Source of the DNA: Candidatus Saccharimonadota bacterium
GTDB taxonomy: Bacteria; Pseudomonadota; Gammaproteobacteria; Enterobacterales; Enterobacteriaceae
Direction of reading: 5' to 3'
Length of the DNA: 32,000 nucleotides
NCBI RefSeq assembly: GCF_000973505.1
Contig: NZ_CP010048.1
Coordinates: forward strand, 390,001-422,000
Shown here: in pieces, positions 11,983 through 30,544 of the stretch
How positions within the stretch are numbered: position 1 is the first letter of the stretch
Layout: the number at the start of each line of letters is the position of its first letter
The notes under the pieces: model-generated
The model's input: only the letters and a program-made list of their open reading frames with translations
The model's database searches: none
Told to the model about the DNA's origin: nothing
Translations under genes and position numbers: made by a program

Positions 11983-14406
11983 CTATTTATCTCTTAATAA
12001 CACTTGGAAACGATTTTTAAGTACAAAAATACATTCTTGAATAATTAATTTAATCTCTTTTTCTTGCAATGTATGAGCAGTATGATATATATAAAGACTA
12101 ATAGATAAACTTTTAAAGCCATTGGGAATTCCATGCCCTCGATAAATATCGAATAATGTAATATCAATTAATTTATCTTTAATAGTCTTTTTACATTCAA
12201 ATATAATTTCTCCAGCAGAAATATGTTCAGGAACAATGATAGAAATATCACGACGGTTAATTGGGAATTTAGGAATAATAATATTTTTTAATGTCATTTT
12301 ATTTTGAGATATCTTATCCCAAAACAATTCAAAAGCACATGTAGTAGTTTTTAATTTTAATTTTTTAGCTAAAATTGGATGAATAACACCAACAAATCCA
12401 ACATACTCTTCTCGTAAAAAAATTGATGCACTTTGACCAGGATGTAATGGTAAATATACATTTGTTGACTTAAATTCAATATCATTTAATTGCCCCATAA
12501 ACTCCAATAATGCTTCTATATCACCTTTAATATCGTAAAAATCTAACGAACGAGACAAAACATCCCAATGATCGTCAAATCTTTCTCCAGTTATGATACC
12601 AGATAACATAAGATGTTGATGAATTTTATTATCTATATTGGATCTATTAGGTAAAAAACATTGACCACATTCAAATAAACGAATATTTTTTTGTTGTCTA
12701 TTTTGGTTATAAATTAACGTGTTTAAAAGTCCTACTAATAATGATAAACGCATTACAGACATATCATTTGTAAGTGGATTAAATAACTTTATCGGAAGAT
12801 TGTGGGGATACAACAAATTTTGAATATCATGATTAACAAAACTATACGTGATTATTTCTTGATATCCCAAATCCACAAGTAACGTTTTTATTCGAGATAA
12901 TGAAAAGTTATTTTTGATGTGTTTATTTATATGCAACTTAGCGTATACAGAAACTTCTGCTATTTTATCATAACCATGTAATCGAACAATTTCTGCTATT
13001 AAATCTTCTTCAATTTTTATATCAAAACGCCAAGTAGGTACCAAAACTATCCATGAAACATCTTTTTGATAAATTTGTACACTACAACCTAAATGAATCA
13101 AAATATCAACAATTTCATTATTTGAAATAATATAACCAAGTAATCTATTTAATGTACTACGATACAAAATAATAGCATTTTTCTTTGGCAACATATTTTG
13201 ATTAATAACAGATGTTATTGCACCAGATCCTCCACCACACATTCTGAGCAGAAAAAACGTAGCACGCTCTAATGCTAATTCAGAAACTTCTGGATTAATA
13301 CCATTTCGTTCATAATATTGGGAAGAATAAGTAGTTATTCCATATCGTTTTATAGATCGAATAATATGCAACGAATTAAAAAATGCAGATCCTAAAAATA
13401 TATTAGAAATTTTTGAAAAATTTAAAGTATCAAAATTTTTAACAGATATTCCAGCTATTTCTAAAGGACCTGTATGATCAGCAATAATTAAAGTATCTGG
13501 ACTCAGAGCTATTTCATTATCATATGAAATAGCTATGGTTTCTTTCTGAGCAGCGAAACGAACATTAATGCCACCATGAATATCATTTAGATCAAAAATA
13601 TGTATTGGTTGCCCCAATTCTAATAACACATAATTAATAATGTCCATTACTATATTAGAAATCATGACTCCAGAACGTCTTAATTTTTCTTTCATCCACA
13701 ACGGTGTGGAAATAGAGGTATCAATATTTTTTAATATTCTTCCGAAATAACATGGACATGCTTCAGGAACATCAATAGATATTGATACTACATCATCAAT
13801 CGTAGGTATTACATGATCAATTTTAGGATATTGAATAGGTAAGCGATATATCGCTGCGATATCATGCGCAATTCCCATTAAATTCAAACAATCACCACGA
13901 TTGGGTGTGATAGAAATATCGAAAATATTATCATCTAATTGTAAATATGTTCTTAAATCTTGACCAAGTGGTGCATCCATTGGCAGTTCAATTATAGAAT
14001 TATTTATAATAATATCATGATATATGATTCCTAAAGACTTAAACGAACACAGGATCCCTTCCGATAATTCATTCTGTATTTGAATACATTTTACTTGTAA
14101 ATTATTAGGTAAATTTGCGCCCCTAAGAGCAACTGCTACCCGAATATTTTTTTTACATCTTTTCGAATTAGAGATAATTTTAAACACACCTACATGGCCA
14201 GTGTCTATTGTATTAACCAACAAATTACAATTATCAGGATGTACTTTGACATCTATGATGTTACCAATTACTACACCAGTAAAATATAATGAAACAGGTT
14301 CTACTACATTAACTTTTAAACCTGACATAGTAATTTTTTTAGCCAACGTAACACTATCAACGGGTAGGTTAACCCATTCGCGTAACCATAATTCACTAAA
14401 TTTCAC
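11983..14406 (-). CDS. pheT: Phenylalanine--tRNA ligase beta subunit
   Basis: The 807-aa ORF begins MKFSELWLREWVN, as in E. coli PheT. Its length and its position directly downstream of pheS are conserved. Confidence 0.93.
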   Translation of the reverse strand: MKFSELWLREWVNLPVDSVTLAKKITMSGLKVNVVEPVSLYFTGVVIGNIIDVKVHPDNCNLLVNTIDTGHVGVFKIISNSKRCKKNIRVAVALRGANLPNNLQVKCIQIQNELSEGILCSFKSLGIIYHDIIINNSIIELPMDAPLGQDLRTYLQLDDNIFDISITPNRGDCLNLMGIAHDIAAIYRLPIQYPKIDHVIPTIDDVVSISIDVPEACPCYFGRILKNIDTSISTPLWMKEKLRRSGVMISNIVMDIINYVLLELGQPIHIFDLNDIHGGINVRFAAQKETIAISYDNEIALSPDTLIIADHTGPLEIAGISVKNFDTLNFSKISNIFLGSAFFNSLHIIRSIKRYGITTYSSQYYERNGINPEVSELALERATFFLLRMCGGGSGAITSVINQNMLPKKNAIILYRSTLNRLLGYIISNNEIVDILIHLGCSVQIYQKDVSWIVLVPTWRFDIKIEEDLIAEIVRLHGYDKIAEVSVYAKLHINKHIKNNFSLSRIKTLLVDLGYQEIITYSFVNHDIQNLLYPHNLPIKLFNPLTNDMSVMRLSLLVGLLNTLIYNQNRQQKNIRLFECGQCFLPNRSNIDNKIHQHLMLSGIITGERFDDHWDVLSRSLDFYDIKGDIEALLEFMGQLNDIEFKSTNVYLPLHPGQSASIFLREEYVGFVGVIHPILAKKLKLKTTTCAFELFWDKISQNKMTLKNIIIPKFPINRRDISIIVPEHISAGEIIFECKKTIKDKLIDITLFDIYRGHGIPNGFKSLSISLYIYHTAHTLQEKEIKLIIQECIFVLKNRFQVLLRDK

Positions 14407-16300: not shown

Positions 16301-16837
16301 TTATTTTTTTGAACTTAATAACATAACCATTTGCCTACCTTCTAACTTATTGGGGAAAAAATCTACTACTGACCATTCTTGTAGATCGTTACATAAACGA
16401 TGTAAAATTTTCACCCCTAAATCTTGATGTGCTAATTCCCCCCCCCGGAAACGTAAAGTAATTTTAATTTTATCTCCCAATTGCAAAAAACGAATTATAT
16501 TTCGCAATTTAATTTTATAATCACCTTCATCAGTATTTGGACGAAATTTAATTTCTTTAAGATGTATGATTTTTTGTTTCTTTTTTTGTTCTTTTATAGA
16601 TTTATTTTTTTCATATAAAAATTTTCCATAATCCATAATACGGCATACTGGCGGTATGGTATTAGAATTAATTTCCACTAAATCAAGTTCTAGTTCTTGA
16701 GATTTTAAAAGCGCTACATCCAAACTGACGATGCCAATCTGTTTACCGTCTGTGCCAGTCAATCGCACTTTGTTAGCAAAAATTTCTTGATTAATTCGAT
16801 TAGGTCGTATCGACTGATTTCTTCTTCCAGTTTTGAT
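16301..16837 (-). CDS. infC: Translation initiation factor IF-3, probably initiating at a non-canonical AUC at 16837-16835. The first canonical start is the GTG at 16768.
   Basis: [39 protein letters not shown] and IKFRP.TDEGDY..KLR..IRFL are collinear with E. coli IF3. The in-frame sequence upstream of the GTG reads [23 protein letters not shown]. This aligns with E. coli [23 protein letters not shown] and starts right after the thrS TAA TAA and a GGGGGA Shine-Dalgarno. Confidence 0.85.
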
Positions 16838-16849
16838 ATTTCCCCCTTA

Positions 16850-18058
16850 TTATTGATAAGCGTAACTTTTAATTTCATATATTAATTTATTTATAAAAAC
16901 ATTCACATCATAATTTCCCAAATTTTTTCCTCTAGATGTACGAACAGATACTGTTTTTTCACTAATTTCTTTATCACCACAAATTAATATATAAGGTATA
17001 CGTTTCAATGTATGCTCTCTAATTTTAAAACCTATGGTTTCGTTACGTAAATCCGCTTTCACACGAATATCTAATTTCAACATATCTTTCTTTAACATAA
17101 GAATATATTGTGCATGTTTTTCTGTAATATTTAACAAAACCACTTGTACTGGAGCCAACCAAATAGGATAAAATCCTGCACATTCTTCTGTTAAAATAGC
17201 AATAAAACGTTCTATTGAACCAAGAACAGCCCTGTGAATCATCACTGGTGGAACTCTATTATTATACATATCTACATAAAACGCATCTAAACTATTTGGC
17301 AAAGAAAAATCTAACTGTATTGTACCACATTGCCAGAATCTATTCATGGAATCTAATAAAGTAAATTCAATCTTTGGTCCATAAAACGCCCCTGCATTCA
17401 TTTGATATTTAAATACAATATTATTTTCCTTTAAAATGTTAGCTAAACTACGTTCTGATATATCCCATATGACATCTTCACCAATTCTTTTTTCCGGTCG
17501 GGTAGATAATTGAACAATTATATTTTTAAAACCAAATATATCATAAATATCATACATCATTTTCACACAACAATTAAGTTCATCAAGAATTTGGGATTGC
17601 ATACAAAATATATGCCCATCATCTTGTACAAATCCTCGTGTTCGCATTAATCCATGTAATGCTCCAGAAGGTTCATTACGGTAACAACTTCCAAATTCTG
17701 CTAGCCGTATCGGTAAATCTCGATAGGATTTCACTCCTTGATTAAAAATTTTTACGTGGCCAGGACAATTCATCGGTTTAATACAATATTCATCATTTTC
17801 TGAAGCAATAGTATACATATATTCAGAATAATTATCCCAATGACCAGTTTTTTTCCACAACGTTTGCTTCATCATCCATGGAGTTTTAACTTCCTGATAT
17901 TCGTATATTTTAAATTTTTTTCTTATGAATTTTTCTAACTCACAAAATATTATCCATCCATTAGGGTGCCAACACACCAAACCAGGAGCATTTTCTTCTA
18001 TATGATACAAATCAAGTTGTTTGGCAAGTTTGCGATGATCTACTTTTTTTTTATTCAT
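16850..18058 (-). CDS. thrS: Threonine--tRNA ligase, catalytic plus anticodon-binding core only. The N-terminal TGS and editing domains are absent.
   Basis: The 402-aa ORF aligns from E. coli ThrS residue ~240 (DHRK.GKQLDLYH..E.APG.V.WH..GW) to the C-terminus. The zinc-site contexts [14 protein letters not shown] and VMIHRA are present. E. coli ThrS is 642 aa. The order thrS-infC-rpmI-rplT-pheST is conserved. Confidence 0.9.
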
Positions 18059-18583
18059 ATCTGTTTTAATATATAATGATATATGAAATCTTTTTTTACG
18101 AACAGGACTATTTTTTTTAAAAAAATAACGTATAATCTTAAAAATATCTTGTAACCAATTTAAATATTTTAATTTTAGATTAATTAAAATGTTTTAACAT
18201 AATTTATTTAATAAAGACCAAAATAATAAGTTAACAGACAACACTAAATAAACTAACAGATAACACCAACTATGATCATTGAGTTATTTAATAATACCAT
18301 AGTAGCATTATAATTATTATTTTTTAAATTCTAACTAATCAAAATTCACCTAAAGCTATATTTTTTAATGATAATAAACAACAACATAAATGTAAATTAA
18401 TATTTGAAAATTATTTATTAATCTTAATCTCTTTAAATACATTTATTAAATTAGTTTACAATGATTATAAAAACAGTAGTATACTATATTTAAAATATCA
18501 TATTTTACCAAAAAATAAACTATTACACTATCATTTAATAATACGTTTCCGAATATTACAAATCTAAATAGTAATCACCTATT

Positions 18584-19444
18584 TCAAGAAATATCTCCAT
18601 TATTCGATATTAATAAATATTTTATTAAATTATCTATGGATTGCATTTGCTTTAAAAAATTCTCTAATTCATCTAATAATAATGCAGATGATCCATCACA
18701 TTTAGCAGATTTGGGATCTGGATGTGCTTCAAGAAATAAACCGGCAATACCCACAGCTATACCAGATCGCGATAATTCATAAATTTTCCCCCCCCGTCCA
18801 CCTGAGACACAACTAAAAGCATTTCTAATTTGCAAGGCATGAGTAACATCAAATATTATCGGACAACCTCCAGATACTGTATTCATTACATTGAAACCAA
18901 GCATATCCACAACTAAATTATCATAACCAAAACTTGTACCTCGATCACATAAAATTATCTTGTCATTTCCATAATTTCTAAATTTATCAACAATATGACT
19001 CATTTGTGTAGGATTAATATATGGAGGCTTTTTAATATTAATTACAGATCCAGTACGCGCCATAGAAATTATAAGATCAGTTTGCCGTGCTAAAAATGCT
19101 GGCAATTGTAAAATATCAACAATACTGGATGCAATATCAGCTTGATTTGATTCATGTATATCTGTAATAATTTTTACCCCAAAAGTTTTTTTTAATTCTT
19201 GAAATAATTTCATTCCCTGATCAAAACCAGGACCACGATAAGAATGAATGGATGAACGATTTGCTTTGTCAAAAGAAGCTTTAAATATATAGGGTATATT
19301 TAATTTTTGAGTTATATTAACATAATGTTCACAAACTTTCATCACTATATCTCGTGATTCTAAAACATTCATCCCCCCAAACAACACAAATGGTAAATTA
19401 TTCGATATTTGAATATCACCAACATTTACAATCAATTGTTTCAT
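18584..19444 (-). CDS. kdsA: 2-dehydro-3-deoxyphosphooctonate aldolase (KDO-8-phosphate synthase)
   Basis: [94 protein letters not shown] are collinear with E. coli KdsA. Confidence 0.95.
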
Positions 19445-27962: not shown

Positions 27963-28095
27963 TAACAATATCCTTATTTATTTTTTATATAATTTAGTTG
28001 TGTACAACTAATATTTTTTAATTAAAATTATTTTTTTAAAAAAACAAAAATAAGCATCTCCATTATAATAATTACACTACTAACACAACCTTTCA

Positions 28096-28169
28096 TGCGT
28101 TCTAATGGATTTGAACCATTGACCTCTACCATGTCATAGTAGCGCTCTAACCATCTGAGCTAAGAACGC
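28096..28169 (-). tRNA. valV: tRNA-Val, anticodon GAC, 74 nt, with no encoded CCA
   Basis: The minus strand reads GCGTTCT TA GCTC AGATGGTTA GAGC G CTACT ATGACAT GGTAG AGGTC AATGG TTCAAAT CCATT AGAACGC A. It folds as a full cloverleaf: a 7-bp acceptor stem, a 4-bp D stem, a 5-bp anticodon stem (one G-U pair) and a 5-bp T stem with a TTCAAAT loop. It is close to recalled E. coli tRNA-Val(GAC), and it forms a GC island in AT-rich DNA. Confidence 0.93.
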
Positions 28170-28187
28170 ATACATAAAACGAATTTT

Positions 28188-28216
28188 ATTATAACCAATT
28201 GTTAGTACATGGTCAA
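28188..28216 (-). promoter_or_regulatory. Near-consensus sigma70 promoter for tRNA-Val: TTGACC, 17-nt spacer, TATAAT
   Basis: On the minus strand TTGACC is at 28216-28211, followed by a 17-nt spacer and TATAAT at 28193-28188. The -10 ends 18 nt upstream of the mature tRNA 5' end, implying a leader of about 10-11 nt for RNase P. Confidence 0.6.
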
Positions 28217-29128
28217 ACTATAAATACTATAATCAAATACTACAAAAATATACATAAATTTCAATAACTGCATTACTATCTATAACATAAAATGGCATAA
28301 ATATAATATAAATTATACATGATTTCAAAATAAAAAAATATATCGACTAACATTATAACAACACCACTATACTAGTTTATACATTTTAACAAATAAAATA
28401 TTCAAAACAAACAAAAATTTATAAAAACTATTTGTTATATTTTTTAATATATTTAATTGTTTAAACAAGTTAATTTACACATAATATATATCTATATCTA
28501 ATTACAGTTTATCAATATTTACTAAATAAATTATTAATAACCATCATCTACTATTACTTAATTAATAGCATCTAAAACTCAAAATCATTCGGGAAACTTT
28601 AACATATCATCAAAAAATATTTCATCTTATTAATATAAAAAATATAAAAAGTAATATGACTCTAATATAGAACAGTGAATACTTATTAATAATTAATAGC
28701 TATACAATATTGTGTATATCACCCATTCAGAGTGAATAAAAATATTTTTTTATATCATCGATAACATAATACATATTCTTGAAAAATATAATAATAAATA
28801 TAATATTATAAAGTACATTTAAAAAAATTATTATTAATAATCTAACTTAACCATCAATTATAGATATCAAAATCAATACTATTTTACATTAATTATTGAT
28901 TTTTTTAAAAAAATCACCATTATCATCTAAACATGCACCATTTTTAAAAAAATACTAATATTCTTACAAAACGACATGTATTCTATATTGAATTTACTAT
29001 CTTTTAAAAAACTAATACAAACTATACACAAAAATTATTTATGTGTTCTATCAATGATAGAATGATATTTTTAAGTAAAAAATTAAAAACAATAACAGTT
29101 GCAGTATTGTTTAAAACAAAAAAAGATA

Positions 29129-29588: not shown

Positions 29589-30544
29589 AATATTTATCTT
29601 CTGTAATGCATTTTTAAATTTTAAAATGAAAGTTAACCGTCTATTTTTTTAAAAAAATTACTACGGTACAACGTTTGAATGATCAGATTATTATTAAAAT
29701 AATAATAACATTTAAAAGCTTAAAAACGATTCAGGACAACTGTTAAATTTTTCAACATGTTACCATTTCTTAAAAAAATATTTTTTAAATCACTCCAAGA
29801 CCAAATTAACTTTTAAATGTAACCATCGTAAAACACACTTAAACATTTCCCATCTATAAATATTTCTCATTCTTATAAGACCTTTGTCCATTGACATACT
29901 CGAAATACATTTATACTGATATTCCGACTTTGATATCATAAAAAAATACATAAACTAATACAACACCAAAATATGGATTCTTTCTAAATTATATCAAAAA
30001 TTTTAAAATATTAAAATACGTTTTTATTATTCATTATCTCATTCAGTATACACAATAAAAACATTCGATATACTGATCAAATATGGTATAATCACATTGC
30101 ATATATTTAATATACAACTAATTATTTTAATAATATAATTCATTTAAAATAAATGTTTCATTTATATCAAAATAAGTTATATACATGCTAATAAATATAT
30201 GATAATATTATAAACTAATGTATTTTAATTTTATACGACAAGAATTTTAAAAATATAAAAATTATATACTAATATATAAAACATTAACTATGATTATAAT
30301 GATACATAAATAAAATATCAAAACTATACAATATAATATATAGTAATTCACTTAAACAAACGATATACAATATTCAAAATATTTTAATATTATTAGAGAA
30401 TATATGCTGTTTTTATTAATCTAAATCTCAACACACTGGATTAATAAAAATTTCATAATTTGATAATTTTCTCATCCACCCATTAGGATGGATAGTAAAT
30501 CGAGAAAATACTCACTTAACTACCCCAACTATAAGGAGAGAAAA

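Follow-up and report, generated by a model that had tools for sequence, protein, structure and literature searches.

Introduction

Editing by threonyl-transfer RNA (tRNA) synthetase (ThrRS) is the textbook class II solution to the discrimination of serine (Ser) from threonine (Thr), and it is kept by free-living bacteria. According to one study, ThrRS misactivates Ser, and an editing site with C182 as its nucleophile clears the resulting Ser-tRNA-Thr (PMC4041444). Here we describe the thrS gene of the Blochmannia endosymbiont of Polyrhachis (Hedomyrma) turneri (hereafter B. turneri), which lies in a 32,000-nucleotide stretch of the genome (contig NZ_CP010048.1, positions 390,001 to 422,000) that was analysed as a whole and is referred to as the window. 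A preliminary description, made from the letters alone, had presented this gene as a ThrRS reduced to its catalytic core. The product lacks the entire N-terminal editing half of the canonical enzyme, and comparison with relatives suggests that this half was lost repeatedly within Blochmannia.

The closest described counterpart is an engineered Escherichia coli enzyme, delta-N ThrRS (residues 242-642; PDB 1EVK, 1EVL, 1FYF and 1KOG), which has the same domains and the same boundary as the B. turneri protein and matches it with an expectation value (E) of about 1e-188. B. turneri ThrRS begins five residues upstream of this crystallised truncated enzyme; however, the E. coli form is a laboratory construct, whereas in B. 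turneri a living bacterium has no other ThrRS, and selection has maintained it. The delta-N E. coli enzyme reportedly aminoacylates but mischarges tRNA-Thr with Ser. Activation survives deletion of the editing domain, although the efficiency of charging drops (PMC4267643). Yeast mitochondrial ThrRS (MST1; PDB 3UGQ), which matches B. turneri ThrRS at E = 1e-83, likewise consists of the core and the tRNA-binding domain without an editing domain; Ser-tRNA-Thr accumulates in vitro with this error-prone enzyme, and some pre-transfer editing at the catalytic site remains (PMC4267643). The loss in MST1 took place separately, in an organelle lineage of eukaryotes, and the enzyme evolved together with an unusual tRNA-Thr1; the Blochmannia enzyme, by contrast, has a typical enterobacterial core. 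Some crenarchaea, for example Sulfolobus, also have a catalytic protein without an editing domain, ThrRS-cat (PMC4267643), but they keep a free-standing ThrRS-ed; none is annotated in B. turneri, and its relatives show the module decaying in place.

Reviews that cite the wide survey of Melnikov et al. 2018 describe the loss of editing by aminoacyl-tRNA synthetases as frequent among host-restricted bacteria, and its loss or degeneration is established in Mycoplasma for ThrRS, LeuRS and PheRS (Li et al. 2011, via reviews). B. turneri likewise combines a reduced genome with lost proofreading, presumably under relaxed selection, but differs from the Mycoplasma type in that the whole TGS and editing half is gone, rather than point-mutated. 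The 2018 survey reportedly examined ThrRS across some 10,000 complete genomes, several Blochmannia presumably among them. Within this genus, the other truncated ThrRSs share the gene context and the two domains with B. turneri and start 4-23 residues before the conserved DHR motif; judged by phylogeny they would be separate losses, and they differ in start position and in the length of leftover DNA, 244 to 2186 base pairs (bp).

The B. turneri genome paper (PMC4389277) makes no mention of the thrS truncation. ThrRS is truncated in all six genomes compared in that paper (6/6), which may explain its silence on thrS. Our literature search, which did not cover Melnikov et al. 2018 itself, found no paper linking Blochmannia with ThrRS editing. 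The truncated genes are already in public annotation, named plainly threonine--tRNA ligase, and such truncations have been present in databases since the B. floridanus genome.

A natural two-domain ThrRS in B. turneri

The ThrRS encoded in the window and the one annotated for the Blochmannia endosymbiont of P. turneri share 100% identity. It passed the thrS equivalog model TIGR00418 with 531.1 bits (curated cut-off, 383.65), covering profile positions 168-561 of 565, and was aligned without gaps to residues 241-635 of E. coli ThrRS (1qf6; E = 9e-189). Residues 7-399 matched chain residues 2-394 of the N-truncated E. coli enzyme (1evk, 401 amino acids (aa)), again without gaps. The only Pfam domains in the open reading frame (ORF) were tRNA-synt_2b and HGTP_anticodon; the canonical 642-aa enzyme also carries TGS (PF02824) and tRNA_SAD editing (PF07973) domains, and neither was found in this ORF. 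In an alignment of seven sequences, comprising B. turneri and six relatives, the zinc ligands C98, H149 and H275 were invariant together with 160 further columns. The protein is about 66% identical to ThrRS of free-living enterobacteria, which indicates strong purifying selection on the core.

The tests based on domains, structure sequences and alignment agree with the preliminary description, which had reported a 402-aa ORF with E. coli homology from about residue 240 onwards, cut down to the catalytic core without TGS and editing domains, and with intact zinc-site contexts (MNCPGH, DDGHIFC and MIHRA, all kept) and an intact anticodon-binding domain. Judged by its sequence, the B. turneri protein is a bacterial ThrRS of other than the canonical full-length form. 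It can be regarded as a natural delta-N ThrRS, composed of the class II core with its zinc site and the anticodon-binding domain, and devoid of N1 (TGS) and N2 (post-transfer editing).

Recurrent truncation across Blochmannia

Blochmannia ThrRS sequences were collected with a profile of four Blochmannia ThrRS cores. Truncation was found to be widespread, with proteins of 402-431 aa as against 642-649 aa for the full-length form. Truncated two-domain ThrRS is present in B. obliquus (414 aa), the Colobopsis nipponica symbiont (404 aa), B. floridanus (410 aa, Q7VR71), B. vafer (411 aa) and B. ocreatus (423 aa), and also on five further Blochmannia-like contigs (404-431 aa). The 90%-identity cluster of B. 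vicinus also takes in B. pennsylvanicus (Q492V5), B. chromaiodes, the C. modoc symbiont and B. herculeanus, each with a ThrRS of 408 aa. Full-length proteins (642-649 aa) are encoded by B. vicinus, the Camponotus nipponensis symbiont and ten further Blochmannia-like contigs. More than 10 genomes, sequenced independently of one another, show the two-domain architecture. Annotated starts of the truncated proteins lie 4-31 residues before the DHR motif, and one of them, P0248, starts at the Met within KMLQRIYG, a conserved motif that closes N2.

A tree of the core domains was built from this single protein by neighbour-joining with 300 bootstrap replicates. Camponotus symbionts formed a clade (100%) with B. 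turneri as its sister (80%), and the Colobopsis pair (100%) was placed outside; this backbone agrees with the published Blochmannia phylogeny as given in the genome paper (PMC4389277). The truncated pennsylvanicus group was sister to the full-length vicinus group, in a 100% clade with the full-length C. nipponensis symbiont, and truncated B. ocreatus was sister to that clade (97%). Additionally, P0242 (407 aa) was sister to five full-length sequences (100%), P0259 (404 aa) to three full-length sequences (99%), and P0248 (431 aa) to P0252 (647 aa; 100%), and B. floridanus grouped with P0249 (100%). The ThrRS cores of the vicinus and pennsylvanicus groups are more than 90% identical, one with and the other without the N-terminal half.

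Since a lost domain is not plausibly regained in place, the tree pattern requires at least five independent losses. Among the closed genomes, at least five would have taken place in Colobopsis, B. turneri, B. floridanus with or without B. vafer, B. ocreatus and the pennsylvanicus group, and the count would come to about eight to ten with the further contigs included. That the same truncation arose at least five times suggests to us that selection on ThrRS editing is relaxed generally in the Blochmannia symbiosis.

The truncated cores were searched for convergent compensatory substitutions, and no convincing signal was obtained: one column (turneri residue 195, Ala to Ser or Thr in five lineages) compared with 13 in the converse control. 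One further candidate, P0002 (429 aa, JGI), was rejected as a truncated ThrRS, being a split or frameshifted gene with a 225-aa TGS+SAD ORF directly upstream. At this locus (L004 5372-7290, JGI Ga0497337_000568) the 225-aa ORF and the 429-aa core ORF overlap by 49 nucleotides (nt), and the neighbours are of the free-living type; the split could be a frameshift from real pseudogenisation or from a sequencing error.

Decay of the N-terminal half

The gap between kdsA and thrS measures 2186 bp in B. pennsylvanicus, 1290 bp in B. ocreatus, 886 bp in B. floridanus, 792 bp in B. vafer, 525 bp in B. turneri, 408 bp in B. obliquus and 244 bp in the Colobopsis nipponica symbiont. In B. pennsylvanicus it holds a collinear pseudogene of the thrS N-terminal half (tblastn, E = 3e-21), with stops, frameshifts and degraded catalytic motifs, which has 67% nucleotide identity to B. 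vicinus over 1204 nt. We constructed a custom profile from the N-terminal halves of 18 full-length ThrRSs, 12 of them from Blochmannia, and searched all six frames with the HMMER filters off. Upstream of truncated thrS, this profile gave E = 7e-14 for P0242, 2e-13 for B. pennsylvanicus and 1e-7 for P0248. Faint collinear N-terminal pieces were seen in three frames of the B. ocreatus gap (E about 4e-4), and a remnant was not detectable with the custom profile upstream of thrS in B. floridanus, B. vafer, B. turneri, B. obliquus and the Colobopsis nipponica symbiont. The DNA upstream of the truncated genes thus passes through graded stages of decay, with a clear pseudogene at one end and nothing detectable at the other.

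A likely course of events would be as follows. The 5′ half of thrS would have been inactivated by stops or frameshifts, while a start codon within the inter-domain linker kept the essential core in translation. Erosion would then have shrunk the dead part, leaving, in B. turneri, the 525-bp AT-rich spacer of today. By analogy with its relatives, the B. turneri truncation probably arose by this same route of pseudogenisation, restart and erosion. The preliminary description had the TGS and editing domains deleted; their absence stands, but the relatives suggest pseudogenisation of the 5′ half and an internal restart followed by erosion.

Two other observations were made in these gaps. In a Blochmannia-like contig (L013 2213-3000, Logan SRR32934495), no kdsA is called between prmC and thrS, and the 788-bp gap holds thrS N-terminal remnants, which suggests that kdsA was lost in that lineage. 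In B. vicinus, 1303 bp without a called gene (L003 4698-6000) lie between kdsA and full-length thrS. This stretch is partly alignable to B. pennsylvanicus, with a blastn match beginning about 350 nt upstream of the vicinus ATG, and may be another eroded gene.

The kdsA-thrS spacer of B. turneri

The measured GC content of the spacer, 17.0%, bears out the earlier account of a 525-bp AT-rich region too short to encode the missing approximately 240 residues. Searches for editing-domain homology in other frames of 18059-18583, or in pieces linked across the homopolymer tracts, were negative by Pfam, custom profile and nucleotide search. A Pfam search of the six spacer frames with stops masked gave no TGS or editing domain, and no match at all, at E <= 10. 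The best match of the custom profile on the thrS strand had E = 4.1, with noise at E 1.1-2.2 on the reverse strand; as a control, the intact B. vicinus N-terminus was matched at E = 2e-122. When the B. vicinus N-terminal coding DNA was compared with the spacer, nhmmer found no match and blastn found low-complexity AT matches only. Rfam found no family in the spacer, promoter-like sites there were at the frequency expected from shuffles, and no terminator was found in it. Three homopolymer tracts, T7 (18125-18119), A8 (18118-18111) and A7 (18097-18091), are present; the preliminary description had listed A9, T8 and A8 here, of which A8 is confirmed, while the A9 sits inside the ORF.

No stop interrupts the 45 in-frame codons that precede the thrS ATG, and their translation is the one given earlier. 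They hold no ATG, GTG or TTG, as had been stated, and this absence follows from the ORF-start definition used. Calculated from base composition, the probability of 45 open codons at this position is about 0.007, and at five further Blochmannia loci with truncated thrS the corresponding open run is 9-25 codons long. The earlier view that such a stretch is unlikely by chance holds in part: the run is unusual, but only marginally so once post-hoc selection is allowed for. The stretch had also been said to resemble faintly the end of the editing domain and the linker. Local alignment to the last 60 residues before DHR of the 18 full-length ThrRSs, compared with 2000 shuffles, placed this resemblance at chance level, as shuffles scored equal or higher (P = 0.76 for the maximum and 0.53 for the mean), and it was rejected as evidence for an editing-domain remnant. 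Its proposed status as an eroded remnant is therefore without sequence support in B. turneri itself, although relatives do show eroding 5′ halves.

Editing-site decay and functional consequences

Full-length ThrRS of Blochmannia was inspected at six editing residues, H73, H77, K156, D180, C182 and H186, whose functional roles are those described for E. coli. All six are kept in 5 of 12 proteins, and the other 7 (P0243, P0245, P0246, P0252, P0260, P0264 and P0270) are substituted at H73, C182 or H186. Full-length ThrRS of Baumannia (P0293), Sodalis Ffu (P0003) and P0031 is likewise substituted, and across all these endosymbiont proteins the changes affect the equivalents of H73, H77, C182 or H186. 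The substituted editing residues of several full-length relatives indicate that the editing function is dispensable in Blochmannia. Editing may thus have been lost functionally before the domain was lost physically.

The delta-N enzyme would be the only ThrRS of the B. turneri cell and would still charge tRNA-Thr, but it would be unable to hydrolyse Ser-tRNA-Thr in cis. The level of Ser at Thr codons would be raised, limited only by discrimination at the active-site zinc and possibly by pre-transfer editing. With one thrS and no known trans-editing gene in the published gene list, tolerance is favoured over trans-editing, and B. turneri probably tolerates Ser-for-Thr errors, as judged by analogy with characterised enzymes. 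In E. coli the N-terminal domain is reportedly needed for translational autoregulation of ThrRS, and that control is presumably gone in B. turneri.

Alternative explanations

Taken as a whole, the explanation we consider highly probable is that B. turneri has a delta-N ThrRS as its sole ThrRS, that editing is lost and Ser-for-Thr substitution tolerated, and that the 5′ half was pseudogenised, as has recurred in Blochmannia. The protein could nevertheless be longer than supposed, if translation began at a non-canonical codon in the 45-codon stretch, where ATT and ATA are present; this would add an N-terminal extension of up to about 45 Lys/Ile-rich residues, unrelated to the editing domain. The low chance probability of the open run, which exceeds that of the five other truncated loci, is consistent with this, as is the neighbouring infC, which evidently uses ATC and hence shows that non-canonical starts occur in this genome. 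However, the run is only marginally unusual after correction for six lineages and post-hoc selection, and it resembles neither ThrRS nor any Pfam family; the other truncated lineages, with their starts close to DHR, share no conserved extension of this sort, and a canonical ATG is available at the domain boundary. We therefore regard a longer protein as unlikely. It is more doubtful still that editing is supplied in trans, by an editing module or an AlaX, ProXp-ST or DTD-like deacylase encoded elsewhere or provided by the host, in the manner of the split ThrRS-cat and ThrRS-ed. A split of this kind does exist in Sulfolobus (PMC4267643), and the B. turneri gene list contains the uncharacterised loci BTURN675_020, 039, 040, 300, 365 and 488. 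Yet the same published list names a single thrS and lacks ybaK, dtd and yeaK (PMC4389277), and in the window neither a free-standing editing protein nor a second thrS was found. A tblastn search of the whole window with five N-terminal domains detected no fragment (the best match, E = 0.09, was inside thrS and spurious). A protein-database search with the B. vicinus N-terminal domain, aimed at a free-standing fragment, listed mostly partial ThrRS sequences of Gammaproteobacteria. In relatives the N-terminal half decays in place and is not relocated, and the editing residues are already substituted in several full-length relatives, both of which argue against trans-editing.

An artefact or a dead gene has to be considered as well: a misassembly or homopolymer frameshift might hide a full-length thrS rescued by slippage, or thrS might be a pseudogene, with ThrRS activity coming from elsewhere. 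The homopolymer tracts of the spacer and the A9 at codons 3-5 would be suitable sites, and slippage rescue at poly(A) tracts has reportedly been described in Blochmannia. No spacer frame has N-terminal homology, though, and 525 bp cannot accommodate about 240 residues. Misassembly at the locus is very unlikely because the genome was closed by its authors, with indels checked by read realignment, and because sister lineages share the architecture. A dead gene is contradicted by the core, which is 66% identical to E. coli ThrRS and keeps every catalytic residue. This explanation is effectively refuted, and we give it almost no weight.

Several points count against the explanation we favour, namely the recurrent loss of the editing half with tolerance of the resulting errors. 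An origin of the B. turneri spacer as an eroded remnant is without direct sequence support, and a clean one-step deletion would look identical today. The loss count rests on a single-protein neighbour-joining tree with weak nodes, B. vafer being joined to B. floridanus with 65% and P0251 being unplaced. The functional statements all derive from work on E. coli and yeast enzymes. The lack of a second thrS or a trans-editing factor is drawn from the authors' annotation, which includes a few hypothetical genes, and from the 32-kb window. The ATG at 18058 is an assumed start codon, and the long in-frame open stretch upstream of it permits a non-canonical one.

With no editing module in its only ThrRS, a bacterium has to cope with a statistical proteome at Thr codons, in keeping with the idea that translational quality control is eroded by a host-restricted life. 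To that idea the B. turneri case, taken singly, adds little. The comparative picture is more useful, as it contains repeated losses, graded pseudogenes, degenerate sites in some full-length relatives and close lineages differing only in the domain. Blochmannia in this way offers a tractable setting in which to study what degree of proofreading an endosymbiont requires and by what course essential multidomain genes become shorter. We tentatively suggest, while holding it to be somewhat doubtful, that the genus offers an undescribed natural replicated experiment, in which the editing half was lost at least five times (perhaps eight to ten), the break always fell in the same linker, and all decay stages and near-identical sister pairs are present. 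If that is true, the cost or benefit of Ser-for-Thr mistranslation would be directly measurable in a symbiosis, and one could ask whether a latent start inside the linker allows an essential multidomain gene to be truncated safely.

Genomic setting and neighbouring genes

The B. turneri endosymbiont is host-restricted and has a reduced genome (749,321-bp contig), and it is described in the genome paper (PMC4389277). GC content of the window is about 27% on average, with 500-bp sub-windows ranging from 16 to 36%. On the minus strand the gene order is prfA, prmC, kdsA, thrS, infC, rpmI, rplT, pheS, pheT and lplA, which fits an inverted block listed for B. turneri (Table S3, PMC4389277). kdsA adjoins thrS in most of the other Blochmannia loci compared, and the context prmC-kdsA-thrS-infC is common to Blochmannia with truncated ThrRS. 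Coordinates of the features are given in Table 1.

Table 1. Features of the B. turneri thrS locus and thrS remnants in relatives (positions refer to the window unless another locus is named)
Feature	Position	Strand	Basis
thrS, N-terminally truncated threonyl-tRNA synthetase, 402 aa, ATG start	16850..18058	-	ORF, TIGR00418 and E. coli alignment
Class II aminoacyl-tRNA synthetase catalytic core, aa 82-292	17183..17815	-	Pfam PF00587 tRNA-synt_2b, E = 1.8e-54, profile 1-178 of 179
Anticodon-binding domain, aa 305-392	16883..17146	-	Pfam PF03129 HGTP_anticodon, E = 1.7e-17
Cys98 codon (E. coli Cys334), catalytic zinc ligand in MNCPGH	17765..17767	-	Invariant column, 7-sequence alignment
His149 codon (E. 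coli His385), zinc ligand in DDGHIFC	17612..17614	-	Invariant column, 7-sequence alignment
His275 codon (E. coli His511), zinc ligand in MIHRA	17234..17236	-	Invariant column, 7-sequence alignment
A9 tract, thrS codons 3-5 (Lys-Lys-Lys), right after the start codon	18044..18052	-	Sequence
Open in-frame run of 45 codons just before the thrS ATG, without ATG/GTG/TTG	18059..18193	-	Translation
kdsA-thrS spacer, 525 bp, 17.0% GC; position of the N-terminal half or its pseudogene in relatives	18059..18583	-	Composition, six-frame translation
kdsA, 286 aa, upstream neighbour of thrS	18584..19444	-	Pfam DAHP_synth_1, E = 5e-64
infC, downstream neighbour; likely non-canonical ATC start (16837-16835), 12 nt past the thrS stop	16301..16837	-	Translation and IF3 alignment
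Unannotated thrS N-terminal pseudogene remains directly upstream of truncated thrS	L010 1815-4000 (B. pennsylvanicus); L011 1646-3000; L013 2213-3000; L008 2711-4000 (B. ocreatus)		

E. coli infC starts at AUU, which serves autoregulation. Translated from the ATC codon, the infC product of B. turneri is aligned without gaps to E. coli IF3 from residue 1, with 66% identity. A GGGGG run (16846-16842) lies just upstream of this ATC, and the automatic ORF call begins 23 codons later, at the GTG at 16768.

The product of pheT (11983-14406, minus strand, 807 aa) has a complete B3/4 editing domain (PF03483, E = 9e-45, profile 1-174 of 174). The retention of this domain by the PheRS beta subunit in the same window indicates that loss of proofreading domains is not general. 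Elsewhere in the window, positions 28001-29000 and 30001-30500 have 16-21% G+C and no ORF of 110 aa or longer, save for tRNA-Val at 28095-28170; these regions may be other eroded genes, like the 5′ half of thrS.

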